From the NCBI GenBank assembly GCA_019695235.1, contig JAIBAI010000004.1:23111-87110 (forward strand): DNA of 64,000 bases, written 5' to 3'. The notes under the pieces were generated by a model. That model searched no databases. It worked only from the letters and a program-made list of their open reading frames with translations, and was not told where the DNA came from. The position numbers were made by a program, and so were the translations under genes. This stretch comes from Bacteroidia bacterium. GTDB taxonomy: Bacteria > Bacteroidota > Bacteroidia > M30B66. Below, piece after piece: positions 8,779-41,292 of this stretch (position 1 is its first letter; each line of letters opens with the position of its first letter).

Positions 8779-8788
8779 CCTGGATGTT

Positions 8789-21741: not shown

Positions 21742-23877
21742 ATGAAACGCCCTGATTTTTCACGCCTGGGTCATGACATCCCGCAATCAGCCTCCAAAAT
21801 ACCAAGGCAGGAAGCATGGATAAGCCCTGAAGGCATCCCTATTCAGCCTGTGTATCAACCAAAAGACCTGGAGAACGCAGAACATATTGGGTTTGGTGCA
21901 GGCATTGCACCATTTCTCAGAGGGCCTTATGCCAGCATGTACCTCAATCGCCCATGGACAATCAGGCAATATGCAGGGTTTTCAACTGCAGAAGAAAGCA
22001 ATGCCTTTTACAGGCGCAACCTGGCTGCGGGGCAAAAGGGGCTTAGCGTAGCCTTTGACCTGGCAACCCACAGGGGTTATGATAGCGACCATGAAAGAGT
22101 GGAAGGAGATGTAGGCAAGGCCGGTGTTGCAATTGACTCAATAGAGGACATGAAAATCCTTTTTGACCAGATTCCCCTTGACAAGATGAGTGTTTCTATG
22201 ACCATGAATGGTGCAGTTTTACCCATCATGGCATTTTATATCCTTGCCGCAGAAGAACAAGGCGTAGCACCTGAATTGCTTTCCGGAACAATCCAGAACG
22301 ATATTCTGAAAGAATTCATGGTGCGCAATACGTACATATACCCTCCCAATCACAGTATGCGGATTATTGCTGATATCTTTGCTTATACTTCGAAGCGAAT
22401 GCCGAAGTTCAACAGTATCAGTATCAGCGGGTACCACATGCACGAAGCAGGAGCAACCGCAGATATAGAGTTGGCATATACCCTTTGTGATGGGCTTGAA
22501 TATGTTCGTACCGGGCTAGCCTCCGGGCTGAAAATAGATGAGTTTGCGCCCCGGCTTTCATTTTTCTGGGGCATTGGCATGAATCATTTTATGGAGATTG
22601 CCAAAATGAGGGCCGGACGTATGTTATGGGCAAAACTTATCCGACAGTTTGAGCCTCAGTCTGAGAAATCTCTCATGCTGCGCACACACTGTCAAACAAG
22701 CGGCTGGAGCCTGACAGAGCAAGACCCCTACAATAATATCACCCGTACTTGTGTAGAGGCATTGGCCGCTGCCCTGGGTGGTACACAAAGTTTGCATACC
22801 AATGCATTGGATGAAGCGATTGCACTACCAACCGATGCATCTGCAAGAATTGCACGAAACACACAGCTTTTCCTGCAATTTGAAACCGGGATTACCCAAA
22901 GCGTTGACCCTTGGGCGGGTTCGTATTATGTTGAAAGCATTACCAAAGAACTTGCCGATAAGGCATGGGCACTCATAGAAGAAGTAGAGAAGCTGGGTGG
23001 AATGGCAAAGGCAATTGAAACGGGTATACCAAAGATGCGCATCGAAGAAGCCGCTGCAAAGAAACAAGCTCGTATTGATTCAGGTCAGGATGTTATTGTA
23101 GGCGTTAACAGATTCAGGAGCGAAGATGAGCAACAATTGGATATTCTTGAAATCAACAACACACTTGTACGTGAAAACCAGTTAAAACGCCTGAATAATT
23201 TACGTAAAACCAGAAATAATACCAAGGTAGACGAAAGTCTCAGGGCATTGAATCATGCCGCACTATCAGGCGAAGGAAACCTGTTGGAATTAAGTATAAA
23301 CGCTGCCAGGAACAGAGCAACACTCGGAGAAATTTCTTCCACTTTAGAGTCGGTTTTTGGACGTTATCAGGCAGCAATAAGACCCATATCAGGAATTTAT
23401 TTGAATGCCGTGAAAAACAACCATCAACTTGAAAAGGCACGTCAGATGGCCGACACCTTTGCTGAATTAGCAGGTCGCCGCCCACGAATTCTGGTTGCAA
23501 AAATGGGGCAGGACGGCCATGACCGGGGTGCCAAAGTAATTTCTACCGGCTTTGCCGACATCGGCTTTGATGTTGACATTGGCCCACTGTTTCAAACCCC
23601 AGCTGAGGTGGCCAAACAGGCTGTTGAAAACGATGTGCACGTGCTTGGGATATCTTCACTGGCGGCTGGCCATAAAACTTTGATACCACAAGTAATAGAA
23701 GCCTTAAAAGAAGCCGGTCGTGAAGATATGGTTATTGTGGCTGGTGGAGTCATCCCCCAGCAAGACTATAACTTCCTTTTTGAAAACGGTGTATCAGCCG
23801 TCTTTGGCCCCGGAACCCGTATACCTCAAGCCGCTCATGATATTCTCGAAATACTCATCGAAGGATATCGCTCATGA
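21742..23877 (+). CDS. mutB: methylmalonyl-CoA mutase large (alpha) subunit with C-terminal cobalamin-binding domain
   Basis: 711 aa. Strong family match throughout ([59 protein letters not shown]). The C-terminal [12 protein letters not shown] block is the DxHxxG B12-binding motif. Confidence 0.9.
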
Positions 23878-23992: not shown

Positions 23993-25246
23993 ATGACAAT
24001 AAAACAACTACTCTTTACAGCACTCTTCTCAATCGTTGTCTCAATAACGCATAGTCAATGCCTGAAATGGAGCGACCCGGATACTGCAAGTGGCTGGTTA
24101 AATTTTAAAACTGTGCCCTGCAATGGTGAATTCACCGAAGATGAAAGCTTTGAGATTTTTCAGTCAGAAGCATACGCCCTGCCTGGTATCCTGAAAGACG
24201 GGAACTACACTTTTAGTGCCTGTAATGGTGCGGGCGCCGGCACATGGGAAATAGACTATACGATTCTATCTCCTACTGGTAGAGTAGATGCCTTCGGACA
24301 TGATTCTGCCTCTTCATGCTCAATTACCTGGACAGCCACTGAGCCAGGCACTTACCTTGTTGTTATCAACAAAGCAGGTGCATGTGGCATTGCTGACACC
24401 ATTGACAATGGTTATGCAAGAATTACAACAAATTATGGTGGGCTCAACTGCCCTCCTCCACCAGTGTTTAAAGAAGGAGCTGAAAGTTTTGAAGGACTAT
24501 TTGGAGCGTTGCCGACATGTTGGAACAGAGTAGATGCAGATGGCGACGGGAAGGGTTGGCAAATTATAAATTTTGATACCCTGGCTTTCAACGGAAATAA
24601 TGCAATAGTCTCATTTTCATGGGACCCGGTGGGAGGAGAAGCACTTACGCCTGATAATTACCTGTTTACCCCACAATTAAAATTTGGGGAAAACGACTCA
24701 CTCTATTATGTAATAAAGACCCTGAATGCTGATTTTCCGGCTGAAAAATATTCGGTATTAATTTCAACCACCGGAAATGACACTGCAGATTTTAACACTG
24801 AAATATTTTCAGAAACGCTTACAGCTGATGCCGCTGAATGGCAGGCCAGGTCAATCAACCTGAGTGCATATAACAACCAGCTTGTATATATAGCTTTCAG
24901 GCACCATTCATCTGCTGACAATGTTGGCGTGGTGTTAGATGGAATCTCTTTGCCAGGTGAGATGCAGGACTGTAATTCTACAGCTATTACGCATCTGGCA
25001 GATAAGCCCACCATTCAGATTCACCCAAATCCGGCAACTTATCAATTGTTTATTTCATCTTCCTTGCCTAAAAAGTCTGTCATTGCTGTAATTGACGTTA
25101 CCGGCCAAATTGTATTGAAGTACGAACGCATTCCTCAGGGAAACCTGCCTTCTGCCATTGATATTTCTTCGTTAGCACCTGGCACATACCTTTTGCGGGT
25201 TCAATCAGGAAATAATTCAGAGGTACTTAAATTTATCAAAATTTAG
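23993..25246 (+). CDS. secreted choice-of-anchor-J-like domain protein with T9SS type-A C-terminal sorting domain
   Basis: Signal peptide, with a Cys-rich N-terminal region. GWQIINFD...LTPDNYLFTPQL...IAFRHHSS block. The C-terminal ~80 aa (IHPNPATYQLFISSS...APGTYLLRVQSGNNSEVLKFIKI) matches a Por/T9SS CTD. Confidence 0.7.
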   Translation: MTIKQLLFTALFSIVVSITHSQCLKWSDPDTASGWLNFKTVPCNGEFTEDESFEIFQSEAYALPGILKDGNYTFSACNGAGAGTWEIDYTILSPTGRVDAFGHDSASSCSITWTATEPGTYLVVINKAGACGIADTIDNGYARITTNYGGLNCPPPPVFKEGAESFEGLFGALPTCWNRVDADGDGKGWQIINFDTLAFNGNNAIVSFSWDPVGGEALTPDNYLFTPQLKFGENDSLYYVIKTLNADFPAEKYSVLISTTGNDTADFNTEIFSETLTADAAEWQARSINLSAYNNQLVYIAFRHHSSADNVGVVLDGISLPGEMQDCNSTAITHLADKPTIQIHPNPATYQLFISSSLPKKSVIAVIDVTGQIVLKYERIPQGNLPSAIDISSLAPGTYLLRVQSGNNSEVLKFIKI

Positions 25247-25338
25247 ACTTATCGGGTCTTCAATACAGCCTTTTTGAACGGCCGGATGAAATGGTGATTT
25301 ATGTCAGAAAAGTTGTCTTCCATGAAAAATGAGGCATT

Positions 25339-25385
25339 AATTTGACATATTTTTTGGCATGTCGGAATATTTGACGATATTTCCG
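25339..25385 (+). promoter_or_regulatory. operator-like repeats immediately upstream of the XRE/S24 repressor gene
   Basis: Two copies of TTTGAC(A/GA)TATTT (25341-25353 and 25369-25382). The second copy is embedded in an imperfect inverted repeat CGGAATATTTGACGATATTTCCG (25363-25385) that abuts the ATG at 25388. Confidence 0.3.
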
Positions 25386-25387
25386 GC

Positions 25388-26176
25388 ATGTTTACAGCCC
25401 CCAACCTGAAATTTCTGCGTAAGCAAAAAGGCTTGTCGCAGGAGGAAGTTTCTGCCGCATTAGGCATTAAACGTACAACCCTGAGTGGATATGAGAACGG
25501 TTCAGCGGAACCAAACTTTGAAAATCTCATTAAGCTAACTGATTTTTATGCAGTAGCTATTGACCAGGTGATAAAGGCAGACCTTCAATCACAAACAGGG
25601 GGGGCGCTCAAAGGCGCTGACCTATCTGGGGGGGCGCTCCGGGTGCTGGCAACAACGGTTGATAGCGACAACAACGAAAATATTGAGTTGGTTCCGTTCA
25701 AAGCAAGGGCGGGGTATACAGCCGGGTATGCTGACCCTGAGTACATTGCGGTACTGCCTACCTTTCAGCTTCCATTTCTTTCGCCAAATCGCAAATACCG
25801 TACCTTCCCCATCATTGGTGACTCAATGCCACCTGTAGCTGACGGCTCCTGGGTCACAGGTGAATATCTACAAAACTGGAACTTTATCCAGAACGGGCTT
25901 CCGTATATATTAGTGACCCTTGATGAGGGCATTGTTTTTAAAACGGTTTACAACCGTATTGAAAAGTCGGGTACGCTGCTACTTTGTTCTACCAATCCCA
26001 CCTATGAGCCTTACGAAGTTGATATTAACACTGTAAAGGAGGTATGGAAGTTTGTGCACTTTATCAGTCATGAGTTGCCTGAACCCAATCTGAGTAAGGA
26101 TGAGATTTCAGACACGGTCATGGAATTGCAGAGAGAAGTGAGTCTGCTGCGCAACGAAATACGCCGTAAAAAATAA
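25388..26176 (+). CDS. XRE-family HTH + S24 peptidase (LexA/cI-like) self-cleaving transcriptional repressor
   Basis: N-terminal HTH (LRKQKGLSQEEVSAALGIKRTTLSGYENG). C-terminal S24 domain with GDSM (IIGDSMPPVADGSWV) and a conserved Lys (VFKTV). The linker has a duplicated GGAL motif (GGALKGADLSGGALRVLATT) and the VPFKARAGY cleavage-site region. Confidence 0.8.
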   Translation: MFTAPNLKFLRKQKGLSQEEVSAALGIKRTTLSGYENGSAEPNFENLIKLTDFYAVAIDQVIKADLQSQTGGALKGADLSGGALRVLATTVDSDNNENIELVPFKARAGYTAGYADPEYIAVLPTFQLPFLSPNRKYRTFPIIGDSMPPVADGSWVTGEYLQNWNFIQNGLPYILVTLDEGIVFKTVYNRIEKSGTLLLCSTNPTYEPYEVDINTVKEVWKFVHFISHELPEPNLSKDEISDTVMELQREVSLLRNEIRRKK

Positions 26177-26198
26177 ACACCCGGTTTTGGCCGGGTGT
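26177..26198. terminator. bidirectional hairpin terminator between convergent genes
   Basis: ACACCCGG-TTTTGG-CCGGGTGT hairpin. The minus-strand reading is followed by TTATTTTTT, a good T-tail for the minus-strand gene ending at 26224. The plus-strand T-tail is weaker. Confidence 0.55.
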
Positions 26199-26223
26199 TT
26201 ATGCATGTTGCGTTTCTGTGCCT

Positions 26224-27606
26224 TTATTGACGTATCACACGAATGCTTGAATTGGTGTTGAGGGTGCGATAATTAACAAAATACACCCCTGCACTTGACA
26301 ACATCCCACTTAAATCACTGGTACTCACACCGGCAGGCAAGTTTAGCAGTCGCTCTGCTATCTTTTTTCCGGTGATATCAAGCACTTGAATAGTTACTGC
26401 CTCTGATTTCTCAAGCTCACAGGTCAAATAAAGGGTTTCATCTGCCGGATTTGGATAAACTGACCAGTTTAGTTGAACTGTAGGACTTTCGATGCCCACA
26501 AGGTCTTCAATATCAGTGATATTACGTGGTAGCAACCTGTAATTGCCGAATGCATAGGTAATTACACCGCTTATGTTATATCTATGCCCTACAACGGGTG
26601 TGTAACGAAATAACACTGTATCCACCAATAGGTCACCAGAACCATCATTGGCAGGCCAAACCTTAAAGTTGTTAGGTGCAGCAGTTGCTTCGGCATTGCT
26701 GGCCTTCACTAATACCCCTTCAAATGGTTCAGTGCCAAGTACAGCGGTGGTGCCTTCATGTGCCGCTGGAACAGTATTGCCTCCAGATACTTTGTTAAAG
26801 TTACTTACCTGTTCTATTTGGGTAGTGTTAAAATACTCCTTTACAGTACCCGAAATGGTAAGGCTGTCGCCAATAGCTACTGTGCTACTGCGGGCCGGGT
26901 CATAAACAAAAACCCCACTCCAATTCCCTGTTCCTGCTTGCAGAAAATACCCTCCGTTGGGGTTTGGTTTTACGGCAGTAATGATACCACCGGTGGTAAC
27001 TTTCTGGTCTTTCAGTGGTGAATCTCCAGCTGACTCTTCTGTAAACTGAATATCGTATATACTAACCGGAACCACGCTTGCAGGGGTGATGGCTACGCTG
27101 TCAATCTGAATGTGGTTGTTGGCAGCATTGGTGTTGCGGATCGAGAAAATAAATTGTGCCCCATCGGTTGTTGTATCGGCAGCAACTGATTGGTTTACCT
27201 CAACCCAGTCTTCACTGTCAAGGGTAAAATAACTGCTGTAACCGTATCCGGCATCATTGTCGCCCTTATCATTGTCGAACAAACCTGCACGAATCTCGCC
27301 CTTTCCTTTTACAAAATATTTAAAATGATACTCTTTTCCTTCTTCTACGCTAACAGCATTTGAAGAAAATCGTTTATGGCTGTTCGACCTGTTTTGCAAC
27401 TGTACTGCTGTACTGCCATATACAGTACCTGAATTCACCTGTGTAATTGAGTCTACCCCCAGATTTGAAGCAGAGCCTTGCCAATCAGTAGGTTTTCCAC
27501 TGTCCCAATTCTCAAAACTACTTGTAAAAACCGGGGCCTGTGCAAACGCTCCTCCGCCTATTAACAGGGCGCCCAGAACGCTAAAAAATGTACTTGCTTT
27601 TTTCAT
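26224..27606 (-). CDS. secreted T9SS cargo protein with ExeM/NucH-type (COG2374-like) OB-fold nucleic-acid-binding module
   Basis: 460 aa with a signal peptide. The central VSIYDIQF...VTTGGIITAV...GGYFLQAG...GVFVYD...IGDSLTISGTVKEYFNTTQI pattern is the N-terminal module of predicted extracellular nucleases. The C-terminal ~85 aa (VYPNPADETLYLTCEL...GVYFVNY) is a T9SS CTD. No catalytic nuclease domain. Confidence 0.55.
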   Translation of the reverse strand: MKKASTFFSVLGALLIGGGAFAQAPVFTSSFENWDSGKPTDWQGSASNLGVDSITQVNSGTVYGSTAVQLQNRSNSHKRFSSNAVSVEEGKEYHFKYFVKGKGEIRAGLFDNDKGDNDAGYGYSSYFTLDSEDWVEVNQSVAADTTTDGAQFIFSIRNTNAANNHIQIDSVAITPASVVPVSIYDIQFTEESAGDSPLKDQKVTTGGIITAVKPNPNGGYFLQAGTGNWSGVFVYDPARSSTVAIGDSLTISGTVKEYFNTTQIEQVSNFNKVSGGNTVPAAHEGTTAVLGTEPFEGVLVKASNAEATAAPNNFKVWPANDGSGDLLVDTVLFRYTPVVGHRYNISGVITYAFGNYRLLPRNITDIEDLVGIESPTVQLNWSVYPNPADETLYLTCELEKSEAVTIQVLDITGKKIAERLLNLPAGVSTSDLSGMLSSAGVYFVNYRTLNTNSSIRVIRQ

Positions 27607-27626
27607 GTGTGTATTTGTTTGCTGTT

Positions 27627-28913
27627 TTAGTCTCTGATATAAATATTGTCAAGGGCTGATGTGCCTGTTTTTCCTGCAGGAGCACTGCCTGTGTACCTGA
27701 ATGCAATATGAAAATTACCTGTATAGCCCTGTGGCAGATAGCCGCTTAGGTCAATATCACCTGAACTTACCCATGCATAATTTGCATTTGACTGGCCTGC
27801 TAATGTTGCCGTAACAGACGACCATGAGGCAGTAGTAGGGTTTGAGCCATCAAAATTGGTGCTAATGAGCACCTCCAGTGCGTTGTGCGTCCAGTTTGAT
27901 ACAGCCGAACTAAATGAAAGTTTCTTTGTGGCACTATTGATCACTGGTGGGGTAATCAGCCAGGAAATATTATTTGCATCTGATGACTGATATGAACTTA
28001 TTTGGGCATACTTGTCAGTATTGTTAAAAATACGACCTCGCCAGTAACGCGTTCCTGTAGTCGCAATATTAAGCCATCCGGCGGCGGCATAATCAATGTT
28101 ATTCGTTACATTATCAAAAGCCTCCTGTACAACGGCAACAGGGTCAACCGGACCGCCTCCTGTGCAACGATCACCGGTCATGGTTAATTCTGCAGGGTTG
28201 CGAACATACAGTTGCATATCACCGTTGAATTCACTTACCACTGCAATAAGTGAACCATTGCCAGAAGGTACTGTTTGGCTTGCGAAGCTTGCATAACCGC
28301 TGGTTCTTACAAGAACTGTTTTTCCATTGCAATCTGTAAGTGTATGATTCACTGTGGTCTGATTCACTGCATCCGACCATGATTTACCCAGATCTGCTGC
28401 TGTAAACTCCGACTGGTCAATGCGAACCAGCTTTGCCTGCATCCCTGATAATTGGTCAATTGTTGCAACAGTAGGTTGCCGTTTACGGCCTGTAGCCTGC
28501 TTTACAACGTTATTGTCAACGCTTACTGAATCTAATTGCAGCATACCATTATAGCGGCTAACATAGCAATTCTTTAGATAAATTCTGATGGAGTCTCCCT
28601 CGTATAAACCACCAGAATTAAGCAACCTTACGTTGATTGCTCCGGTATTGTCTTCGATAAAAATGTTTTTGTACAAATTGCCACTGCGTTCGTCGGCAGT
28701 TACTACAGCATAAACCGATGAGTCACCAATAATTTTCACGGTTTTGTTTACGTATAATGCACGCAAATCTGCTATTGTCAGCACACTACCAGTTGGCAAG
28801 GTCCTGAGGGGAGGCGTGTCAAACTCTTTCTTGCATCCACCCATGGTGGTTAAAAATAGAAGAGCAAATAATCCGATAATGGAAGAAATGTATTTCATGA
28901 AATGTAAAATCAA
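27627..28913 (-). CDS. DUF5689-like lipoprotein (OB-fold-like region + choice-of-anchor-J-like C-terminal domain)
   Basis: Lipoprotein signal (LFLTTMGGC). Blocks VTIADLRALY...IFIEDNTGAINVRL...GDSIRIYL... and GKTVLVRTSGYASF...MQLYVRNP. The C-terminal part resembles the anchor-J domain of the 23993 gene (GWLN...FHIAFRYTGS). Confidence 0.55.
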   Translation of the reverse strand: MILHFMKYISSIIGLFALLFLTTMGGCKKEFDTPPLRTLPTGSVLTIADLRALYVNKTVKIIGDSSVYAVVTADERSGNLYKNIFIEDNTGAINVRLLNSGGLYEGDSIRIYLKNCYVSRYNGMLQLDSVSVDNNVVKQATGRKRQPTVATIDQLSGMQAKLVRIDQSEFTAADLGKSWSDAVNQTTVNHTLTDCNGKTVLVRTSGYASFASQTVPSGNGSLIAVVSEFNGDMQLYVRNPAELTMTGDRCTGGGPVDPVAVVQEAFDNVTNNIDYAAAGWLNIATTGTRYWRGRIFNNTDKYAQISSYQSSDANNISWLITPPVINSATKKLSFSSAVSNWTHNALEVLISTNFDGSNPTTASWSSVTATLAGQSNANYAWVSSGDIDLSGYLPQGYTGNFHIAFRYTGSAPAGKTGTSALDNIYIRD

Positions 28914-31429
28914 AAACGGTAAGAAATAACCAAATTATAAATTGCCCCCAGGCTGTACACTCTTTTTTGAGGGAACTTGTCAATATTATCAGTGTCGTAA
29001 CGCAACTGTTCAAAAGCAGAAATCACAAACTTCTGGTTGTTCAGGGCGTTATTAATATTTAGGCTAATGTTCAAATTATTGCCTTTTATTCTGAAAGATT
29101 TCCCTAATGAAAGGTCTAAAGTTACAGCAGGGTCAAACTCTTGTTGTTCAAGTAATTCAGTCCATTGTGGATCAGAAGTAACGAATTTGTCTAAAGCTTC
29201 TGCACTTCTTCGGTCAGGATTGGGTTCAGCAAAAATATCTCTGAAATAATTCAGGTTGGCGCCAGCCCACCAGCCTTTCCGGCCATTGAAACGCAAACCT
29301 AAACTAACAGCAGTTTGAGGCATCCCTCCTATTCTGTAATTTTCAAAATAAATCAACCTGTTTTCAGCCAGCAATTCAGCTGAGTTATCACGCACAATCG
29401 TAGCAAGTGGCCTTGAATTGTAAATATACATGCCCTTTGATGCTACCAATTGCAGTGTAAAAGGGCCATAGACATTGTATTCGCCCGCAAACTCAAGGCC
29501 CTGATGCAACTGCCCTACACCACTCATGGTGTAATTTACAAGATTCCGGTAATCATCATGGTAGAAATTCCGGTACCAAACCTGGTTACTAAATTCAGTA
29601 TGGAACCATGTAAGGCGCAGTTTAAGTCGAGGATAACGAATTTGGTAGTTGAAATCATACGAGGCTACGGTTTCACTACGCAGGCCTGGCACAAGGTCGG
29701 GGCGGGTTCGTGGCGACAAGAAAGCTTCTCTCGACAAGGGGGCACGGCTGTAATAAGCCGCATTGGCATATACATAATGCCTTCCGTTGATTTTCCATGT
29801 CAGCCCGCCTTTAACCCCGCCGTTTGTGAAGTTCTGTTTGGCAGAATTACCAGATGAACTGTTCGGAAAACGCCCATTCACCATGTTGCCTTCACGCCAA
29901 AAAGCGGTATGCGACAGATGAGCGGCAACATAGCCTTCCCATTTTGCCTTACTATACTCGAGCTGAGAAAAACCCATGTATTGTTGTTGGTGAATATTAT
30001 AGTCAAAGCCAAAAACATCACCTTTCTTAATAACATTATTCGGATTATTTAAATCGTTCTGTGCCACATTGGGGTCAGCAAAATCACGCTCTGCAAACTG
30101 ATCAACATCTAACCAGAAATCACCGCCTAACAGGTCATTCATGCGTTTGTAATTTCTGCTTTTGTAAAACAATCCATTTATCCCGCCGGATAGTTTCATG
30201 CTTTCACCAAATGCGCGGGTACCAAGCAGCGTAAAGCCTCCCTGCCTGCGGTCAATCACCGACTCTTCGAGCACATATTTTGAACGATTACCGGTTAAAA
30301 TCTGTCCTGCCTGGCCATCAGGATTTGTTACCTGATATAAATTCTTTGAATTGGCAAAATAGAGTTGCTCCCAATTAATTTGTCGGATATTCTCATTGGT
30401 TTCCCATGCGTTTGTCATTGCCTGCGCCCTTGCAGGGTCTTCTTCAGCATAATAGCTGGGCAGATAACGGTAGTAATCCGGGCGTGGGTCTGCTGCTTCG
30501 TACCAATTCAAATTTGTATAACTGTTTCGTCCGAAAGCGTAAAAAAGTGAGCCTGTAATTTTTGTATTTTCATCCGGCTGGTAGATATGGCTTAAAATAA
30601 TGGTAGGCATGTGGTTATTGCTTACCCTGGCATTGCGTTTTTCACCGTTTTGGTATCCCCAGTTAGGGTTATAAAAGTTTGAACCTGCCAGGTCATAAGC
30701 TTCCTGAGTGGCAAAACCTTGCCGCCCCTGCCGGATAGGTGCTCCAAAGGCAATCAGGTTTAGGCTGTGCCGCTTGTTAAATTTCTTTTCTGCCGCCCCA
30801 AAATAGCTCCAGGCATCAAAGAATGTCCCTTCCACAAAGCCTTCCTGCGACCAGCGTCTTGAACCGGAAAAAGTGAATGCCCATCCGTTCTTATTAAAAC
30901 CTGTTGAATGGGTAAACATGACCCTGTGCCTGAAAATCCGGTTACTGCTGGCATACGAAACCGAAGTTCCGGGCCGTAGTGAACCTGCCCTGGCCTCGAT
31001 GTGCGAATACCCTCCTACCCCCGAAAAGGTATAACGGCTGTCTTGCAAATAGGGGCGCATTTCCTGAAACCGGGTAACATCATTCAAACCGCCCCAGTTG
31101 GCAAATGTAGCCAGGCCTGATTCGGCATCATTGAGTTTCACCCCATTGATCATTACCGCAAAGTTCTCCGTGCTGTATCCACGTATCCGGAAACGGGCAG
31201 TGCCAAAATGAAAACCTGCGGTACTGGCGTATAAATCACGCGATGATTGTAATAAGCCGGATACATCTTGCCCGCCTTTATCAGAATCGGCATCATCCCC
31301 GCTTACACTAAACAAAGGTATCCGGTTTACATTTGCCGAATCAGGCTTAACTATGGTGTCACTTTGAGCCATGATCTGACCGGAGAACATGACTACCAAT
31401 GCGCTTAAGGAGAGTATGAATTGCTTCAC
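28910..31429 (-). CDS. TonB-dependent receptor-like outer-membrane beta-barrel protein
   Basis: About 840 aa. Preferred GTG start at 31429 gives the signal peptide MKQFILSLSALVVMFSGQIMA-QS (the tool ORF extends to 31495). Plug-like region (RFRIRGYSTENFAVMINGVKLND), a long beta-rich body and a C-terminal ...YNLVISYRF with terminal Phe. Confidence 0.65.
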   Translation of the reverse strand: MKQFILSLSALVVMFSGQIMAQSDTIVKPDSANVNRIPLFSVSGDDADSDKGGQDVSGLLQSSRDLYASTAGFHFGTARFRIRGYSTENFAVMINGVKLNDAESGLATFANWGGLNDVTRFQEMRPYLQDSRYTFSGVGGYSHIEARAGSLRPGTSVSYASSNRIFRHRVMFTHSTGFNKNGWAFTFSGSRRWSQEGFVEGTFFDAWSYFGAAEKKFNKRHSLNLIAFGAPIRQGRQGFATQEAYDLAGSNFYNPNWGYQNGEKRNARVSNNHMPTIILSHIYQPDENTKITGSLFYAFGRNSYTNLNWYEAADPRPDYYRYLPSYYAEEDPARAQAMTNAWETNENIRQINWEQLYFANSKNLYQVTNPDGQAGQILTGNRSKYVLEESVIDRRQGGFTLLGTRAFGESMKLSGGINGLFYKSRNYKRMNDLLGGDFWLDVDQFAERDFADPNVAQNDLNNPNNVIKKGDVFGFDYNIHQQQYMGFSQLEYSKAKWEGYVAAHLSHTAFWREGNMVNGRFPNSSSGNSAKQNFTNGGVKGGLTWKINGRHYVYANAAYYSRAPLSREAFLSPRTRPDLVPGLRSETVASYDFNYQIRYPRLKLRLTWFHTEFSNQVWYRNFYHDDYRNLVNYTMSGVGQLHQGLEFAGEYNVYGPFTLQLVASKGMYIYNSRPLATIVRDNSAELLAENRLIYFENYRIGGMPQTAVSLGLRFNGRKGWWAGANLNYFRDIFAEPNPDRRSAEALDKFVTSDPQWTELLEQQEFDPAVTLDLSLGKSFRIKGNNLNISLNINNALNNQKFVISAFEQLRYDTDNIDKFPQKRVYSLGAIYNLVISYRF

Positions 31430-31624
31430 GGAAATTTTTAGGGCTACAAATATAGACTGTTCATTCAGCCGGGATACAAGTTTACAATTTTTCATGCATG
31501 TTTTAACCTAAAGATGAAATTAAAGCCTTACTATTTATATTCGCTTTACAAATCATTCGTTCATGACAAATGGAATATCTTTAATTTGCATGCTTAATTC
31601 GCTTGTTTCAAACTTACTCAAAAC

Positions 31625-32680
31625 ATGAACCACCGGGCCTCCATTATAGCGTCATTGAGTTTTATTTTTATTTTCAACCCTTTCGGGGGTTTTTCTCAGG
31701 AAAAACCAAAGAAATTTGAGGTGGCTTGCATTGGCTTTTACAATGTTGAAAACTTATACGACACCGAGAATGATACTTTGGTGAACGACGAAGAATTTTT
31801 GCCGGAAGGGGGTAATCGCTGGACGGACAAGCTATACCGCGAAAAACTACAACACATGAGTCAGGTAATCAGCCAGATAGGCACCGACGCAAGTCCTGAT
31901 GGTGCAATTGTATTAGGCATGGCAGAAATTGAAAACCGGAAAGTTGTTGAAGATCTTATTGCCCAACCCTTACTGAAAGGCCGGAATTATGGTATTGTTC
32001 ACTACGATGGCCCTGACCGTCGGGGGGTTGACGTGGGTCTTATCTACCGGAAAGATTTCTTTACAGTAGAATCGTCAAGAAGCATACGTTTAGTGAATCC
32101 TTCCGACACTTCCTTCAGAACACGCGACCAATTGTTGGTAAGCGGGAGTTTACGTGGCGAACGGGTGCATTTCATGGTAGCACACTGGCCTTCGCGCAGG
32201 GGAGGAGAAAAAGCCAGCTCACCTTTGCGGATGCTTGCCGCCCAAACTGGTCGTAAAGTCATTGATTCAATCTTAGCCGTAGAGCCCAATGCCCGTATTA
32301 TTTATATGGGCGATTTAAACGATGACCCCATCAATAAAAGCCTTACCGAGGGTTTGCGTGCCAAGGGAAACAGAAACAAGCTACAAGCAGGTGACATGTT
32401 TAATACCATGTATGCATTTTACAAAGATGGTATTGGCACTCTCGCCTATAGGGATGCGTGGAATCTCTTTGATCAACTGGTTATTACACAACCTTTTTTA
32501 AATGGTAACGACGGAGGGTTTCAGTTTAATCGTTCGCGAATCTTTAACAAGCCCTTCATCAGAAAACAAGATGGCAACTTCGATGGCTACCCCTGGCGTA
32601 CCTTTGTTGGTGGCAAATACGATGGTGGCTTTAGCGACCACTTCCCGGTTTACTTGGTCTTGATGCGAGAAATCAAGTAA
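31625..32680 (+). CDS. secreted endonuclease/exonuclease/phosphatase (EEP, DNase I-like) family protein
   Basis: Signal peptide, then YNVENLYDTEND, GDLNDDP and SDHFPVYLVL, which are conserved EEP catalytic blocks. Resembles the C-terminal nuclease domain of ExeM/NucH-type extracellular nucleases. Confidence 0.8.
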   Translation: MNHRASIIASLSFIFIFNPFGGFSQEKPKKFEVACIGFYNVENLYDTENDTLVNDEEFLPEGGNRWTDKLYREKLQHMSQVISQIGTDASPDGAIVLGMAEIENRKVVEDLIAQPLLKGRNYGIVHYDGPDRRGVDVGLIYRKDFFTVESSRSIRLVNPSDTSFRTRDQLLVSGSLRGERVHFMVAHWPSRRGGEKASSPLRMLAAQTGRKVIDSILAVEPNARIIYMGDLNDDPINKSLTEGLRAKGNRNKLQAGDMFNTMYAFYKDGIGTLAYRDAWNLFDQLVITQPFLNGNDGGFQFNRSRIFNKPFIRKQDGNFDGYPWRTFVGGKYDGGFSDHFPVYLVLMREIK

Positions 32681-32684
32681 TAAT

Positions 32685-34373
32685 TTACCTGGCAACTGCA
32701 ACCCGAAACACTGCTCTCTCCTGCCCTGTCACTACTTCAAGCAAGTAAATCCCGGCATTCAGCTCTGCAACATCTACTTGTATAGAATGGGTACTACCTG
32801 TGCCTGAAAGTTGCCGGATGGTTTGCCCGCCTAAATCTGATAAGCGCACCTGCACCTGCTGACTATTTGAATTATCTGTGCGTTTTAGTTGAATACTACT
32901 TGCTGCCGGATTAGGGAACACCTGCCACAACGTCTGTGGCAGCGCCATCGGAGAGATGCCTACCGTTCTTCCGGTATAGCGTTTGAATAGCCACGAAAAT
33001 GCCTGGTAATATTGATTGGCGATGTCGGCATCATGAATTATCAGGGTATTTTCATCGTTCTTTGTTTCGGCCGATGTGCTCCAGTTATGCGAGCCCGTCA
33101 ATACCTGAGGGTCTGAACCCGGAGCAGTGGCATCAGCAATTACAAATTTATGATGCATAATACCTGCAAAGCCATTGTTACTGGTCATTCTGCCAAATCT
33201 CAATGCCCCCTTTAATTGATTCCATTCTGCCACCTGATCAACCTGGGTAGAGTCATCAATGACCCCATAGGTTTCAGTAAGCCCGTTGCTGACACGGTTT
33301 GTAATGGCATTGGCAATATCGAAACGGGTTATTACCATAGAAGCAAACTCCAAATCGTAGCCTGCTGAGTTAATCACTCCTATAATCTGGGCATTTGCTC
33401 CATCAGAAGGACTGAAATAGGAGCGCACCCGACGTCCACCAATATTGAATTCATGCGGGGTGTTATTGGTCTTATCAGGTCCGAATTTTGCGTTGGCTTC
33501 GTTAGGCTGAGGCCCGGTACTTCCAAACATTTCTTCAAACTCAAGCTTGTATGCCCTTGCCAGTGCCTGGTCTTGCAGGATAATCACATTGTTCTCATCC
33601 GGCCCATTTAATTGATCTACCGTCCAGTTGGTCGAACCCGTCCATACCAATGCGTCATTCGGATTTTCAGCATCAGCATCAATAACCACAAATTTATTAT
33701 GCATGAGTCCATAAGTAAAGTTGCGTACCTTACTTTTTATTTTTCCAATCTGCGATGATACATTGGGAATCATCGTGTTGCTCGAAGACTCATCATACAC
33801 CATCCTCACCTGCACCCCACGTGTTCTGGCACTGTTTAATGCGGCAGCAATATTTGACAAACTATTAGCGGTTGAACTGTTGTAAATCGCGATATCAATG
33901 GTTTGTTTTGCACGATTAAGATAGGCAATCAGGGTATCATCAACCAACTTGTTTAAATAATTGGCAGGGGTTTGGGTGGCTACTGCATGCTCAACCTCAT
34001 GGTTAAAATAGACCTTTATTTCACCTGTTGACAGGGCGCGGGTTGTGTATAAAAACGGACCTGATTTTAAAGTATCGTTCTGGTTTGCGGCGAAAAAAGT
34101 AACCTGATAAAAACGTGCTGGTTCACCTTCCCGGAAGATCCAGCGAAAGTTTTCCTGTTGTTCGCCAAGCTGCATCGTGCCTGTCTGGTTGGTATGGGTA
34201 GCCGACCATTCGACCCATGCATTTGCCTTCTGGTTAAGTTGCCAGTTCAAGGTGAATCCATTGGATTGAATAGTATTTACAGTTGCTTCATTATGTAATG
34301 CCAATTTCTGTGCTCCAACAAAAAAGGGCGCTTGAAAAATCAGGCTTAGGGTCAAAAAAACAATATGCTTCAT
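32685..34373 (-). CDS. phospholipase D-superfamily protein (two HKD motifs) with T9SS type-A C-terminal sorting domain
   Basis: Two HxK(x)4D motifs (LMHNKFVVIDA...GSTNWT and IMHHKFVIADA...GSHNWS). Signal peptide. C-terminal QVFPNPAASSIQL...GIYLLEVVTGQERAVFRVAVAR matches a T9SS CTD. Confidence 0.8.
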   Translation of the reverse strand: MKHIVFLTLSLIFQAPFFVGAQKLALHNEATVNTIQSNGFTLNWQLNQKANAWVEWSATHTNQTGTMQLGEQQENFRWIFREGEPARFYQVTFFAANQNDTLKSGPFLYTTRALSTGEIKVYFNHEVEHAVATQTPANYLNKLVDDTLIAYLNRAKQTIDIAIYNSSTANSLSNIAAALNSARTRGVQVRMVYDESSSNTMIPNVSSQIGKIKSKVRNFTYGLMHNKFVVIDADAENPNDALVWTGSTNWTVDQLNGPDENNVIILQDQALARAYKLEFEEMFGSTGPQPNEANAKFGPDKTNNTPHEFNIGGRRVRSYFSPSDGANAQIIGVINSAGYDLEFASMVITRFDIANAITNRVSNGLTETYGVIDDSTQVDQVAEWNQLKGALRFGRMTSNNGFAGIMHHKFVIADATAPGSDPQVLTGSHNWSTSAETKNDENTLIIHDADIANQYYQAFSWLFKRYTGRTVGISPMALPQTLWQVFPNPAASSIQLKRTDNSNSQQVQVRLSDLGGQTIRQLSGTGSTHSIQVDVAELNAGIYLLEVVTGQERAVFRVAVAR

Positions 34374-34778: not shown

Positions 34779-35753
34779 ATGACCAAAGGCCCTGTATCAC
34801 AATTTATTGAAAAACATTACCTGCATTTCAACGCTGCTGCATTAGTTGATGCGGCCAAAGGCTACGAAGCACACCTCAACGAAGGTGGTAAAATGATGAT
34901 TACCCTTGCCGGAGCAATGAGTACTGCTGAACTGGGGAAATCACTTGCAGAAATGATTCGGGCAGGCAAGGTTGATATTATTTCGTGCACCGGCGCTAAC
35001 CTTGAAGAAGATATCATGAATCTGGTGGCTCATAGCCATTACAAAAGGGTACCGAATTACCGTGATTTAAGTCCGGAGGACGAATGGAAACTTTTGGAAA
35101 AAGGTTTTAACCGGGTAACAGATACCTGTATTCCTGAAGAGGAAGCGTTTCGCCGGATACAAAAGCACATTGTAAAACAATGGAAAGGAGCACATGATGC
35201 AGGTGAGCGCTTTTTTCCTCATGAATACATGTACAAAATGCTGTTGTCAGGAGAGATGCAACAGTATTATGAAATTGACCCCAAAGATTCGTGGATGATT
35301 GCTGCCGCTGAACGCAATTTGCCTATCATCGTTCCTGGCTGGGAAGATTCGACTATGGGCAACATCTTTGCTTCTTATGTAATTAAAGGCGAACTGCCGG
35401 CATCAGTGATGAAGTCGGGTATTGAATATATGGTTTGGCTGTCAGACTGGTACCGTAACAATTCTGCGGGCAAAGGAGTCGGCTTTTTTCAGATTGGTGG
35501 TGGTATCGCCGGAGATTTCCCTATTTGTGTGGTACCAATGATGTACCAGGATTTAGGCTGGAAAGATGTACCTTTTTGGTCGTACTTCTGCCAGATATCT
35601 GATTCTACTACCTCTTACGGCTCCTATTCTGGTGCTGTGCCTAACGAAAAAATCACCTGGGGAAAACTAGACATCAACACTCCTAAGTTTATTGTCGAAT
35701 CAGACGCTACCATTGTAGCCCCTCTGATTTTTGCCTGGCTACTCGGTTGGTAG
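34779..35753 (+). CDS. deoxyhypusine synthase-like protein (DHS/homospermidine synthase family)
   Basis: 324 aa. LAGAMSTAELGKSLAEMIRAGKVDIISCTGANLEED and the downstream GGG..GDFPIC-like blocks are typical of the deoxyhypusine synthase fold. Confidence 0.75.
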   Translation: MTKGPVSQFIEKHYLHFNAAALVDAAKGYEAHLNEGGKMMITLAGAMSTAELGKSLAEMIRAGKVDIISCTGANLEEDIMNLVAHSHYKRVPNYRDLSPEDEWKLLEKGFNRVTDTCIPEEEAFRRIQKHIVKQWKGAHDAGERFFPHEYMYKMLLSGEMQQYYEIDPKDSWMIAAAERNLPIIVPGWEDSTMGNIFASYVIKGELPASVMKSGIEYMVWLSDWYRNNSAGKGVGFFQIGGGIAGDFPICVVPMMYQDLGWKDVPFWSYFCQISDSTTSYGSYSGAVPNEKITWGKLDINTPKFIVESDATIVAPLIFAWLLGW

Positions 35754-35812: not shown

Positions 35813-36862
35813 TTATTTGTTCTCTAAAGCCGCGATTGTCATTTCTCCCCTCAGCGAAAAAGAAAACAATCTTTTTATCTCCGCAGTATCTGAATAATTA
35901 CCCAACAAAAACATGAGTTTGGTAATAGCTGCTTCAGTGGTGACATCCTGTCCGCTTATTACCCCAATTTTCTCCAATTGGTTGCTTGTTTTATATTTTC
36001 CCTGATAAACAGTACCAGAGGTACACTGGGTGACATTTGCAATGATTAATCCTTTCTGAATTGCAGAATGCAAAGCTTCAATAAACCAGGTTTCGGTAGG
36101 TGCATTCCCAGAGCCGAAAGTCTCCATAACAACCGCCTTTAGCCCTTCAACCTGAAGAATACCATTTACATACCCAGGAGTCATTCCGGGGAATATCTTA
36201 AGTATGGCAATATCCTGATTCAATTTCTTATGAAAAATCGTTTCCTTCCCGCTCTGCCTGTGTAATACATTTTCGTTAAGATTAATTTGCACTCCTGCCT
36301 CCGCCAATGGAGGATAGTTGGCGCTGGTGAAGGCATTGAAGTGCGATGAGCTGAACTTGGTGGTACGATTACCTTTCAGCAAATGGTATTCAAAATAAAT
36401 GCACACCTCATTCAGCTTGGGTGCACCGTTTTCTTTCATAGCAGCTATTTCAAGTGCTGTAATAAAATTCTCACGTGCATCTGTACGTAAAACGCCGATA
36501 GGTAATTGAGAACCTGTAAAGATTACTGGTTTCGATAGATTCTCAAGCATGAAACTCAATGCAGAGGCTGAGTACGCCATGGTATCTGAACCATGTAGCA
36601 CCACAAAACCATCGTATTGCGGATAATTCTCCTCAATCACTTCTACCAATTGTACCCAATGTGCCGGGTGGATATTGGACGAATCAATGGTATGTGTGAA
36701 GGTGTGGATATGTATCTCAATATCAAGACGGTTGATTTCAGGAATATTTGCCAGAAGCCTTTCAACATTCACGGGCACCAGCGAACCACTTTCTACGTCT
36801 TTCACCATACCAATGGTACCACCAGTATATATTACCAATATTGAGGAGGGTTTACGCATCAT
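35813..36862 (-). CDS. ansA: L-asparaginase, type I
   Basis: ILVIYTGGTIGM (TGGTIAG-type active-site Thr motif). 349 aa. Confidence 0.85.
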   Translation of the reverse strand: MMRKPSSILVIYTGGTIGMVKDVESGSLVPVNVERLLANIPEINRLDIEIHIHTFTHTIDSSNIHPAHWVQLVEVIEENYPQYDGFVVLHGSDTMAYSASALSFMLENLSKPVIFTGSQLPIGVLRTDARENFITALEIAAMKENGAPKLNEVCIYFEYHLLKGNRTTKFSSSHFNAFTSANYPPLAEAGVQINLNENVLHRQSGKETIFHKKLNQDIAILKIFPGMTPGYVNGILQVEGLKAVVMETFGSGNAPTETWFIEALHSAIQKGLIIANVTQCTSGTVYQGKYKTSNQLEKIGVISGQDVTTEAAITKLMFLLGNYSDTAEIKRLFSFSLRGEMTIAALENK

Positions 36863-37625
36863 GATGAAATAATTTTAATGCGTTTGTACTGGTAATTTCG
36901 GCAATTTGTGTAACCGGAATTTCATAAATCAAAGATAGTTTTGCAGCAATCTCTTGCAAAAAAGCTGGTTCGTTGCGCTTACCCCGATACGGTACAGGCG
37001 CTAGGTAAGGTGCATCGGTTTCTAATACAATATTTTCAATAGGTACTTGCTTCAACAGCTCAGGCAAGGTACTTGTTTTAAAAGTAACAACTCCGCCAAT
37101 CCCCAGTAGAAAGCCCTGTTTAACAATTTCATTTGCTTGTTCTGCCGTTCCGGAAAAACAATGAAAAACACCTTTTAGTCCTTTATTATTAAACTCTTTC
37201 ACAATCTGAATACATTCAGCTGTGGCATCCCTACTGTGTATTGATACCGGAAGATTTTTCTCAACTGCCCAGGCGCATTGCGTACGGAATGCCTCCTGTT
37301 GAATTTCAATAGTTGATTTATCCCAGTATAAATCTAATCCTATCTCGCCTACTCCATAATAAGTTCCGGAACAAAGCAATTCGTATGCCTGTTCAAGCTC
37401 CTGCTCCCAAGTCTGAGGCTTTACCGAACATGGATGCACCCCCATCATCGGGAAACATCGTTCAGGATATTGCGCAACCAATTCAAGCATTGCAGTCACA
37501 CTTTCCTGGTCAATATTTGGCAAATACATACGTGTTACCCCTGCCTGCTCGGCACGCTGCATCATCAGGTTCAAATCTTCACTGAATTCGCTTAGATAGA
37601 TATGGGTGTGGGTATCTATCAGCAT
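36852..37625 (-). CDS. TatD-family metal-dependent hydrolase (DNase)
   Basis: MLIDTHTHIY N-terminal His motif. 257 aa. Overlaps the asparaginase start by 11 nt. Confidence 0.85.
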   Translation of the reverse strand: MLIDTHTHIYLSEFSEDLNLMMQRAEQAGVTRMYLPNIDQESVTAMLELVAQYPERCFPMMGVHPCSVKPQTWEQELEQAYELLCSGTYYGVGEIGLDLYWDKSTIEIQQEAFRTQCAWAVEKNLPVSIHSRDATAECIQIVKEFNNKGLKGVFHCFSGTAEQANEIVKQGFLLGIGGVVTFKTSTLPELLKQVPIENIVLETDAPYLAPVPYRGKRNEPAFLQEIAAKLSLIYEIPVTQIAEITSTNALKLFHHDA

Positions 37626-39663: not shown

Positions 39664-41292
39664 TTATTTTTTATTCGGTTCAGCAGTTACAACTTTTCCT
39701 GACTCCAGTACTTCTATAGCCTTTCTCACAGTTTTATCTGTTGCACTTGCTACCTGGTAATAACCGTTATAGCCGTACAAATTCCGTGCTAACATTGCCT
39801 TTAACTGCGTCAGCATGAATTCAGATGAGTTGCTTTTCAAATGCAGTGGCTGCTTGACACCTTGCTTATCAAGATATTGATAAAAGCCTGTTACCAAAGC
39901 ATTTGCATCATATTTTTGGGCAAAAACACCTGCATCGGGATAGGCAGCCATGATTTGTTTCCGGTGCTCATCAGCAAAAGCAAAGGTATAGGTACTAAAA
40001 TGCCCGCCGGATGCAATCTCGGTCACAAATCCACTATACCCACTGGTGTCAATAGCAACAAAAATATCTGGCATGATGCCGCCTCCTCCATACACCACAC
40101 GTCCCGATGGTGTTTTATAAGCAATGCTATCATGCTGCAGGGTATCGGGATGCTCCATCTCTCCATTGCTATACCGGTCAGCTAATTCGTGGTAATATGC
40201 TTCCTTTCCTTTCTGATACGGGCGTTGAATGCAGCGACCTGTAGGAGTGTAATATCTGGCAATTGTCAATCGCATAGCACTGCCATCGTCAAACTGCACC
40301 TCTTCCTGTACCAGGCCTTTTCCAAATGAGCGACGGCCAATTATCCAGCCCCGGTCGTTGTCTTGAACAGCACCTGCAACAATTTCCGAAGCCGAAGCCG
40401 AGCCTTCATCAATCAGAACAGCAAGGCTTCCGGTTTCAAATTTCCCCTGTGAAGTAGCGTTGAAATCTTCCCTCTTACGTGCCTTTCCCTGGGTATATAC
40501 AATCTTTTTCCCACTTGCCAAAAACTCATCTGAGAGGCTCACAGCCGCATTCAGGAAGCCTCCGGGATTGTCGCGTAAATCAAGAATAAGCTTACGCATA
40601 CCTTGTGCTTTAAGCTCCTTAAACGCCTTTTGGTACTCTTCAAAAGTGGTCGCTGAAAAACGACTAATCCGGATGTACCCGATGTCTTTGCTGATTATGT
40701 GATGGGCATCAAGGCTGTAAAGCGGAATCTTGCCTCTGGTAATGGTGTATTCACGTGTGCGCTTGATTGAAGGCCGAAAAACCCCCACCTTTACTTTTGT
40801 ACCACTTTTACCACGTAATTGCTTGACAACCTGTTCGTTGCGGATGCCATTTCCGGCTACATTCTTTCCTTCAATCGCTACTATCCGGTCTCCTGAACGA
40901 ATACCCAATGATTCAGAAGGCCCCCCTGAAATTGCAGCTACCACCATAATCGTGTCGCGCTGGATATTGAATTCGATGCCAATACCGTCAAAATTCCCTT
41001 CCAGAGGCTCCTTCATTTGTTCTAACTCAGAAGCAGGGATATACGAAGAATGGGGGTCTAACTGCTGCAACAGGCTCACCACTGCTTCATCTTCCAATTC
41101 ACCAGGGTTAATGGTATCAACATATTCAGCCTCGATATATTTCAGAATATCGCGAATCTTATCTGACTTTGTTTTGCCGGATACTTTTCCATTTCCACTT
41201 GTAAAACTGCCTATGAGCAGACCCAGTGCTATAGCAGCACCAGCCACAAGCGGAATAAGCACTTTATTGTAGGTTGCTTGGGCCGACATCAA
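39664..41292 (-). CDS. carboxyl-terminal processing protease (S41 family, PDZ-containing)
   Basis: PDZ-like GIGIEF...GGPSE...GDRIV, and S41 catalytic region LILDLRDNPGGFL. 542 aa. Confidence 0.85.
   Translation of the reverse strand: MMSAQATYNKVLIPLVAGAAIALGLLIGSFTSGNGKVSGKTKSDKIRDILKYIEAEYVDTINPGELEDEAVVSLLQQLDPHSSYIPASELEQMKEPLEGNFDGIGIEFNIQRDTIMVVAAISGGPSESLGIRSGDRIVAIEGKNVAGNGIRNEQVVKQLRGKSGTKVKVGVFRPSIKRTREYTITRGKIPLYSLDAHHIISKDIGYIRISRFSATTFEEYQKAFKELKAQGMRKLILDLRDNPGGFLNAAVSLSDEFLASGKKIVYTQGKARKREDFNATSQGKFETGSLAVLIDEGSASASEIVAGAVQDNDRGWIIGRRSFGKGLVQEEVQFDDGSAMRLTIARYYTPTGRCIQRPYQKGKEAYYHELADRYSNGEMEHPDTLQHDSIAYKTPSGRVVYGGGGIMPDIFVAIDTSGYSGFVTEIASGGHFSTYTFAFADEHRKQIMAAYPDAGVFAQKYDANALVTGFYQYLDKQGVKQPLHLKSNSSEFMLTQLKAMLARNLYGYNGYYQVASATDKTVRKAIEVLESGKVVTAEPNKK

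Follow-up and report, generated by a model that had tools for sequence, protein, structure and literature searches.

A Ddb-like candidate locus for the use of extracellular DNA, adapted to type IX secretion, in an uncultured member of Bacteroidia

Introduction

The 64-kb stretch of contig JAIBAI010000004.1 analyzed here (the window), from an uncultured member of Bacteroidia, carries between positions 23993 and 34373 seven open reading frames (ORFs), among them genes for a TonB-dependent transporter, an adjoining DUF5689 lipoprotein, a non-catalytic protein with oligonucleotide/oligosaccharide-binding (OB) folds and two predicted exported nucleases. With a probability of roughly 0.6, the locus is interpreted as an extracellular-DNA use system that resembles the Ddb system of Bacteroides thetaiotaomicron, is organized in the style of a polysaccharide utilization locus (PUL) and is adapted to a bacterium with a type IX secretion system (T9SS), the most likely purpose being scavenging of nucleotides or phosphate. 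A preliminary description of the region had read all seven ORFs as one locus for capture, degradation and uptake of extracellular DNA, a disassembled form of the ExeM/NucH nucleases. All seven ORFs are present where it had placed them, nearly all of its domain calls are confirmed by profile searches, and its functional reading is supported by OB- and HIN-like folds, by synteny and by homology, at the level of family and architecture, to studied systems (PMC12478041, PMC8459023, PMC8851478). The accompanying statement that no such transporter-coupled arrangement had been characterized does not stand, as arrangements of this kind were characterized between 2021 and 2025.

In Riemerella anatipestifer, a transposon screen pointed to RA0C_RS04920, which combines DUF5689 with DUF5017 and is annotated as choice-of-anchor J, and to the adjacent RA0C_RS04915, a TonB-dependent-like protein (PMC8459023, 2021). 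Both genes are essential for natural transformation and it was proposed that their products carry DNA through the outer membrane (PMC8459023); tonB mutants of the same species lose transformation as well (PMC8383284). The BT3560-3563 operon of B. thetaiotaomicron encodes a TonB-dependent receptor (BT3560), a hypothetical protein and two nuclease lipoproteins, of which BT3563 is an extracellular DNase that degrades extracellular DNA and thereby promotes bile-dependent biofilm formation (PMC8851478, Bechon et al., PNAS 2022). This operon is included in ddbABCDEF, which the cells need in order to deplete exogenous DNA and to produce uracil and xanthine, and deletion of which abolishes DNA depletion (PMC12478041, Sharan et al., PNAS 2025). 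DdbA, DdbB and DdbF are active nucleases, DdbC is the transporter, and DdbD is a DUF5689 protein whose AlphaFold model resembles the HIN dsDNA-binding domain of p202 and for which an interface with DdbC is predicted (PMC12478041). The authors relate the locus both to the Riemerella genes and to PULs, and the Riemerella locus also has a ddbB-like nuclease (PMC12478041).

Gene organization and conservation of the locus

The following features make up the unit discussed below; EEP denotes the endonuclease/exonuclease/phosphatase superfamily, PLD the phospholipase D superfamily and CTD the C-terminal domain recognized by the T9SS.

28910..31429, minus strand: predicted divergent TonB-dependent outer-membrane transporter, 839 aa (Plug match, relatives, C-terminus SYRF)
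27627..28898, minus strand: DUF5689 and choice-of-anchor J lipoprotein, 423 aa (DUF5689 E 8e-48, choice_anch_J E 2.5e-18)
26224..27606, minus strand: predicted T9SS-secreted accessory protein without catalytic domain, 460 aa (N-terminal part of ExeM_NucH_DNase, Por_Secre_tail)
26173..26202, minus strand: strong hairpin terminator with a stem of 12 bp and a T run after it, 22 nt past the stop of the OB-fold gene and overlapping the end of a convergent helix-turn-helix (HTH) gene
31430..31624, no strand: promoter region of 195 bp from which the transporter operon and the EEP gene diverge (-7 box TATATTTG)
31625..32680, plus strand: EEP-superfamily nuclease of family PF19580, 351 aa (Exo_endo_phos_3 E 8e-128)
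32685..34373, minus strand: two-HKD PLD-superfamily enzyme, Nuc/NucT-like, 562 aa (two PLDc_2 stretches, Por_Secre_tail as type A CTD)

The transporter, DUF5689 and OB-fold genes follow one another on the minus strand with spacings of 11 and 20 nt and, as predicted from this arrangement, are a three-gene operon that ends at the strong terminator. From the promoter region that it shares with this operon, the EEP gene is read in the opposite direction, and the PLD gene converges on the EEP gene. Together with two plus-strand genes that are unrelated to them, these genes do not make up a single transcription unit, a point on which the earlier description is corrected.

Relatives were collected from three metagenomic contexts with independent gene calls (Pfam labels) and from species-representative genomes, which contributed the 80 best-matching loci of the genome scan, none of these 80 from Bacteroides or Riemerella. 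Synteny was counted over 82 related loci by tblastn with the window proteins, the denominators being the loci with enough flanking sequence to judge. Transporter identity in the 80 loci is 45-55%, the nearest species-representative genome standing at 55%, and the host genomes are mostly metagenome-assembled genomes (MAGs) labeled Flavobacteriales, Crocinitomicaceae, Cryomorphaceae or Bacteroidales, together with Putridiphycobacter roseus (L081). One locus with transporter, DUF5689 and EEP genes (L077) comes from a MAG labeled Chlorobiota, and represents either a binning or labeling artefact or an occurrence of the module outside Bacteroidota.

The DUF5689 gene directly follows the transporter gene, in the same orientation, in 69 of 73 loci, and the OB-fold T9SS gene comes after it in 36 of 59. 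An EEP gene is found within the flanks in 33 of 46 loci (25 in the same divergent position, 7 downstream), and a PLD gene in 4 of 82. The HTH/S24 gene is found only in the 81%-identical relative L001, and the anchor-J gene that begins at 23993 in none of the 82. The same gene order is seen in the three metagenomic contexts, where the gene calls are independent. Because this adjacency is conserved over 82 loci, clustering of the core is far beyond chance. From the conservation counts, the functional unit is five genes and not seven, with the transporter and DUF5689 lipoprotein as its invariant core. Conservation of the neighborhood, proposed in the preliminary description as a check on its reading, is thus seen for the DUF5689-transporter pair and for the EEP gene, but the seven-gene extent fails, with an anchor-J gene that is never conserved, an HTH/S24 gene confined to L001 and a PLD slot that varies.

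The transporter and the DUF5689 lipoprotein

The transporter carries a signal peptide for signal peptidase I (SPI; ...GQIMA/QSD), a predicted N-terminal plug and a C-terminus, ...SYRF, that is consistent with an outer-membrane barrel. The window protein itself is borderline against the Plug model (23.0 bits against a cut-off of 23.9, E 1e-4), Plug is matched by 20 of 20 aligned relatives at E ≤ 0.01 (best 2.8e-8), and the TonB_dep_Rec barrel model (PF00593) is matched by one of the 20. Since every one of these relatives matches Plug, one matches the barrel and the protein ends in ...SYRF, the product of 28910-31429 is, as judged from its sequence, probably a divergent TonB-dependent transporter. 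Its profile found no relative among PDB sequences. The family is very large, with at least 7014 homologues (7014 of 8000 scored candidates at E ≤ 1e-5), and by analogy the transporter is the counterpart of DdbC/BT3560. Of its two candidate starts, GTG at 31429 and an upstream ATG at 31495, the GTG is favored, as it had been in the preliminary description, because the longer ORF would include a Bacteroidetes -7 box (TATATTTG, 31447-31454 on the minus strand) that is kept in the closest relative. An Rfam scan of the window found two tRNAs only and no riboswitch or leader.

The gene for the DUF5689 lipoprotein most likely starts at ATG 28898 (MKYISS...GGC) and not at 28913, because a 99%-identical database protein has 423 aa and both M1 and the lipobox Cys22 are conserved; with this start the gap between the DUF5689 and transporter genes is 11 nt, which replaces the 4-bp overlap reported earlier. 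The protein has a signal for signal peptidase II (SPII) with an invariant Cys22, and DUF5017 is recorded for its orthologues. In the AlphaFold model (pLDDT, the predicted local distance difference test score, of 87) the N-terminal half is a tandem OB/HIN-like structure and the C-terminal domain is cleaved-adhesin/MAM-like. The predicted fold resembles HIN-type dsDNA-binding domains, as was found in the Ddb work with p202 (PDB 4JBM), and the lipoprotein is proposed to be a DNA-binding lid or partner of the transporter and the counterpart of DdbD and RA0C_RS04920.

Longer DUF5689 lipoproteins of ~600 aa with a duplicated choice-of-anchor J domain also occur (P0253, P0272; L032, L042, L048, L059, L061, L070, L072, L084). 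The OB-fold T9SS gene is present with the long form in 3 of 11 loci versus 34 of 48 with the short form (Fisher p = 0.013). The idea that the long proteins carry an extra OB domain as a substitute for the OB-fold T9SS gene was rejected, the extra segment being a second anchor-J domain.

The OB-fold T9SS protein and its module family

The third product of the operon (26224-27606) consists of an SPI signal, a jelly roll of the type found in carbohydrate-binding modules (CBM4/22-like, aa ~25-177), a double OB module of ExeM/NucH type (aa ~180-370) and a type A T9SS CTD, and its AlphaFold model (pLDDT 91) divides into three parts. The OB module, the CTD and the lack of a catalytic domain had been recognized previously, but the jelly-roll domain had gone unmentioned. 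The ExeM_NucH_DNase match covers aa 206-313 and model positions 2-117 of 546 (E 7.5e-14), and the score of the protein against the ExeM/NucH model NF033681 is 51.5 bits, for a cut-off of 300. Like the PLD protein, it combines a C-terminal Por_Secre_tail/TIGR04183 domain with an N-terminal signal peptide, SPI in both cases, the combination by which type A T9SS cargo is recognized. OB/HIN-like folds are present in the predicted structures of both accessory proteins, 26224 and DUF5689, in agreement with what the preliminary description had expected of a structural comparison, and the OB region of the 26224 family aligns with the DUF5689 region in profile-profile comparison (E 5e-5, probability 67%).

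A search with the 195-aa OB module returned 3146 representative proteins, 414 of them at E ≤ 1e-30. The domains found in 48 sampled proteins were the T9SS CTD (30), LTD (17), a tRNA-anticodon OB domain (6) and DUF5689 (4), and, as nuclease domains, Exo_endo_phos (3), Exo_endo_phos_3 (2) and PLDc_2 (1); one further relative is fused to Endonuclease_1. Because these Rosetta-stone fusions join the module to nuclease families encoded at the locus, the module would be expected to work with them. Very large T9SS or LTD proteins, of up to 2800 aa, also carry the double OB module in 2-8 copies in tandem (P0353-P0498); they make up a large family of putative nucleic-acid binders at the cell surface that has hardly been studied.

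The EEP nuclease and the variable second-nuclease slot

The EEP protein retains intact catalytic motifs (NVENL at 40, GDLND at 229, SDH at 337). It is predicted to be periplasmic, which would correspond to the role of DdbB, because it has an SPI signal with neither a lipobox nor a T9SS CTD. Searches with this protein found no usable relative among PDB sequences and no match to the ExeM/NucH model, and its similarity to an ExeM-like EEP domain is at the level of motifs only. The PLD protein has complete HKD motifs at aa 225 and 407, matches NucT models at E 9e-22 versus 7e-5 for cardiolipin synthase, and finds Zucchini/MitoPLD, NucT and Nuc among PDB entries; it is predicted to be an extracellular nuclease, Nuc-like rather than a phospholipase.

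Comparison among loci shows that the position beside the EEP gene is occupied by a PLD-CTD gene in the window and L001, by an Endonuclease_1-CTD gene in L002 and by an EEP-CTD gene in 8 loci. It is thus a variable second-nuclease slot, always filled by a nuclease, of which the family changes (PLD, Endonuclease_1 or EEP) and each member of which has a T9SS CTD. Genes for 5'-nucleotidases are nearby in 6 loci. In L004, from a genome of 4 Mb, the EEP and transporter genes are separated by genes for an OmpR-family two-component system and for an unknown protein of 426 aa (6221-9627), and a glycerophosphodiester phosphodiesterase (GDPD) gene follows the OB-fold T9SS gene (15908-16939). These neighbors hint at phosphodiester or phosphate scavenging; when the two-component system was tested as PhoBR, it gave generic OmpR-family matches only, all below cut-offs.

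Flanking genes

The two ORFs of the region that fall outside the five-gene unit are:

23993-25246, plus strand: Cleaved_Adhesin/choice-of-anchor J protein with T9SS CTD (E 2e-31 / 2e-25; Por_Secre_tail 9e-14)
25388-26176, plus strand: HTH_3 with weak Peptidase_S24, cI/LexA-like (HTH_3 8e-17; S24 7e-5, just below cut-off)

The HTH/S24 gene converges on the operon, and the strong hairpin terminator is common to both and apparently bidirectional; because the gene is conserved in the closest relative L001 only, it is probably an unrelated regulator. The genes that flank the locus are housekeeping genes. A deoxyhypusine-synthase-like gene (PF01916) borders the locus in the window (34779-35753, plus strand), in L001 (5883-6857), in L002 (15731-16705) and also in L005; it is 84-95% identical among these loci, compared with 55-81% for the transporter, and both its conservation and its repeated adjacency are unusually high. 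Some 2.5-7 kb downstream, in the same order as in L001, are genes for a TatD-family DNase (36852-37625, minus strand) and a cytidine/deoxycytidylate-type deaminase (41289-41801, minus strand), which are probably housekeeping genes and are of interest since deaminated nucleobases are the end products when B. thetaiotaomicron uses DNA by way of Ddb. Genes of the methylmalonyl-CoA mutase family are found at 21742-23877 (plus strand, 711 aa) and 52727-54529 (plus strand, 600 aa), 29 kb apart; the genes for the two subunits of this enzyme are usually adjacent. A giant 2515-aa protein encoded at 762-8309 (minus strand) is a gliding-motility-type adhesin with a CHU_C T9SS signal domain (type B) and at least eight SprB repeats, and it confirms that T9SS cargo with either type of CTD is present in the organism.

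Comparison with known systems

The window shares with the Ddb and Riemerella modules a transporter gene adjoined by a DUF5689 gene, the architecture of the lipoprotein, its predicted HIN-like fold and exported nucleases encoded next to them. As in Ddb, a transporter is followed by a DUF5689 protein with an HIN/OB-like model, an extracellular nuclease is accompanied by one with an SPI signal (periplasmic), and the whole suggests a PUL-like sequence of binding, cutting, import and further cutting. Unlike Ddb, whose extracellular components are SPII lipoproteins, the window has extracellular components that are predicted T9SS cargo with CTDs, its secreted nuclease is a two-HKD PLD enzyme, and its operon has a conserved third gene (CBM-like domain, double OB module and CTD, non-catalytic) that is not described in the Ddb work. 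The likeness to Riemerella lies in a lipoprotein that combines DUF5689 with anchor-J/DUF5017 and adjoins a TonB-dependent-type protein, in a ddbB-like nuclease and in a Bacteroidia host with a T9SS. In Riemerella, however, the genes are near comEC and recA and have transformation as their documented phenotype, whereas no competence genes lie near the window locus.

Relations to two other kinds of system are looser. As in SusC/SusD PULs, a transporter is encoded with a lipoprotein immediately downstream, and there are also genes for secreted hydrolases and accessory binding proteins; unlike in these, the partner is DUF5689 with no SusD match, the transporter has neither SusC signatures nor a PDB sequence relative, and the enzymes are nucleases. 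Lacking a SusD-family protein, the locus is no SusC/SusD PUL. The ExeM/NucH proteins (NCBIfam NF033681/NF033680, COG2374) share with the 26224 protein an OB module that matches the N-terminal ~115 model positions, and related OB modules co-occur with LTD and EEP. The 26224 polypeptide itself, in contrast, has neither an LTD nor an EEP domain and scores far below the cut-off, the neighboring EEP protein belongs to a different family (PF19580), and profile searches found no LTD domain in any of the seven window proteins; by these comparisons the locus is not a member of ExeM/NucH. The earlier notion of a disassembled ExeM/NucH nuclease thus keeps Rosetta-stone support for the split-versus-fused idea, given that the OB module is found fused to LTD, EEP and PLD, but is not supported in its literal form.

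Proposed mechanism and points that weigh against it

In the proposed mechanism, the T9SS would export the Nuc-like PLD nuclease, which would cut extracellular DNA, and also the non-catalytic OB-fold protein, which by its modeled fold may bind DNA at or near the cell surface. The OB/HIN-like DUF5689 protein, a putative surface lipoprotein, to judge from gene adjacency and predicted fold, would sit on the transporter and hand over DNA fragments for import; formation of such a complex and transport through it are suggested by DdbC/DdbD and by the Riemerella mutants. Imported fragments would then be degraded by the SPI-bearing EEP nuclease, which may act in the periplasm. Scavenging is regarded as the most likely purpose because the nuclease slot is always filled, because 5'-nucleotidase and GDPD neighbors occur, and because no competence genes are nearby.

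Several observations weigh against this interpretation. The link to DdbC, DdbD, DdbB and the Riemerella proteins consists of shared Pfam family, architecture, fold and gene order and not of direct sequence alignment. A carboxypeptidase-regulatory domain is reported for RA0C_RS04915, and no CarboxypepD_reg match is found in the window transporter and 20 relatives; this difference concerns the Riemerella protein only, as the Ddb paper is silent on whether DdbC has that domain. The sequence CKKEFD after and including Cys22 misfits the simple C(x/xx)(D/E)(D/E) lipoprotein export rule, so that surface exposure of the DUF5689 protein is putative. The jelly-roll and anchor-J domains resemble carbohydrate-binding modules, and those parts may have a ligand other than DNA. 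When a conserved operator or Pho box was sought in the divergent promoter regions, the generic Bacteroidetes -7 box alone was enriched: TAATTTTG and its complement were the sole enriched k-mers in 43 homologous intergenic regions (13 of 43, versus at most 9 in shuffles). Finally, B. thetaiotaomicron grew poorly on DNA as its only supply of carbon, nitrogen or phosphorus, and a nutritional role is thus unproven even there (PMC12478041).

Alternative explanations

The strongest alternative, although a good deal less probable than scavenging, is that the locus is a DNA-uptake machine for natural transformation, in which the transporter and DUF5689 protein would bring long DNA to the periplasm for ComEC/DprA-dependent recombination and the OB-fold T9SS protein would be a surface receptor. 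In a Flavobacteriales homologue pair, the sole genetic phenotype reported is that transformation is lost completely (PMC8459023), a loss that tonB mutants share (PMC8383284), and non-catalytic OB proteins would suit a receptor role. Nucleases as such are no argument against it, since the Riemerella locus has a ddbB-like nuclease too (PMC12478041), but catabolism is favored by the number of nucleases, two or three with one of them secreted, and by the 5'-nucleotidase neighbors. Moreover, Riemerella comEC (RS04895) and recA (RS04870) are only a few genes from RS04915/RS04920 (PMC8459023), whereas no ComEC, DprA or ComF gene is found in the 64-kb window or among the recurrent neighbors in the 82 loci. 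Flavobacterium johnsoniae is reported not to be transformable under the same conditions (PMC7965970).

It is improbable that the locus serves instead mainly to remodel extracellular DNA, be it in the biofilm matrix or at the surface of the cell, with import secondary. Such a role would follow the example of BT3563, which in the homologous operon promotes bile-dependent biofilm through degradation of extracellular DNA (PMC8851478), and would agree with predicted T9SS secretion of the window's nuclease. It leaves unexplained, however, why the transporter-DUF5689 core is invariant and the secreted nuclease variable, and why there is a predicted periplasmic EEP nuclease.

Import of something other than nucleic acid, either a glycan or another phosphodiester polymer bound by the jelly-roll and anchor-J domains, with the nucleases as chance neighbors or general phosphodiesterases, is very unlikely. 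It draws on the best structural matches of the 26224 N-terminal and DUF5689 C-terminal domains, which are carbohydrate-binding modules and adhesin domains, on weak CBM_4_9 matches in relatives and on the GDPD gene in L004. Opposed to it are the conserved association with nucleases of four families, the OB/HIN folds as the conserved shared element, with the same OB module fused to nuclease domains elsewhere, and the DNA phenotypes reported for homologues.

Equally little credence is given to the view that all seven genes, repressor and anchor-J included, are one locus and an evolutionarily disassembled ExeM/NucH nuclease, since, although the genes are contiguous, the repressor recurs in L001 and the OB module is of ExeM/NucH type, the anchor-J gene is absent from all 82 loci, the repressor is kept in the 81%-identical relative only, a strong terminator separates it from the operon, and the EEP protein is of PF19580 and matches no ExeM/NucH model.

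Significance

Extracellular-DNA use by a Ddb-like system thus stays the preferred reading. The kind of system is already known, whereas the T9SS wiring, the non-catalytic OB protein encoded by the third gene and the interchangeable T9SS nuclease slot, Nuc-like PLD included, are not described in the cited work. The locus leaves the known principle unchanged. To our knowledge, the transporter and DUF5689 pair is the only described route for DNA across a Gram-negative outer membrane that is independent of pili, and studies of it have been confined to gut Bacteroides and Riemerella. The present loci form a closely knit subfamily that is widespread in uncultured genomes labeled Flavobacteriales, Crocinitomicaceae, Cryomorphaceae and Bacteroidales, and that is wired to the T9SS through the OB cargo and through swappable nucleases (PLD, Endonuclease I and EEP). 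The subfamily offers a testable candidate for an extra DNA-binding component, its natural nuclease swaps are useful for study of how extracellular DNA is processed ahead of import, and its genes provide a set of markers by which DNA turnover or phosphorus scavenging could be traced in environmental Bacteroidota. More speculatively, and with doubt, the OB-fold T9SS cargo might be an undescribed surface DNA receptor that feeds a TonB-powered channel, a variant of which carries out genuine natural transformation, and not only scavenging, in environmental Flavobacteriales-like bacteria; if so, TonB-dependent, pilus-independent DNA uptake would be a widespread route of gene transfer in the phylum.

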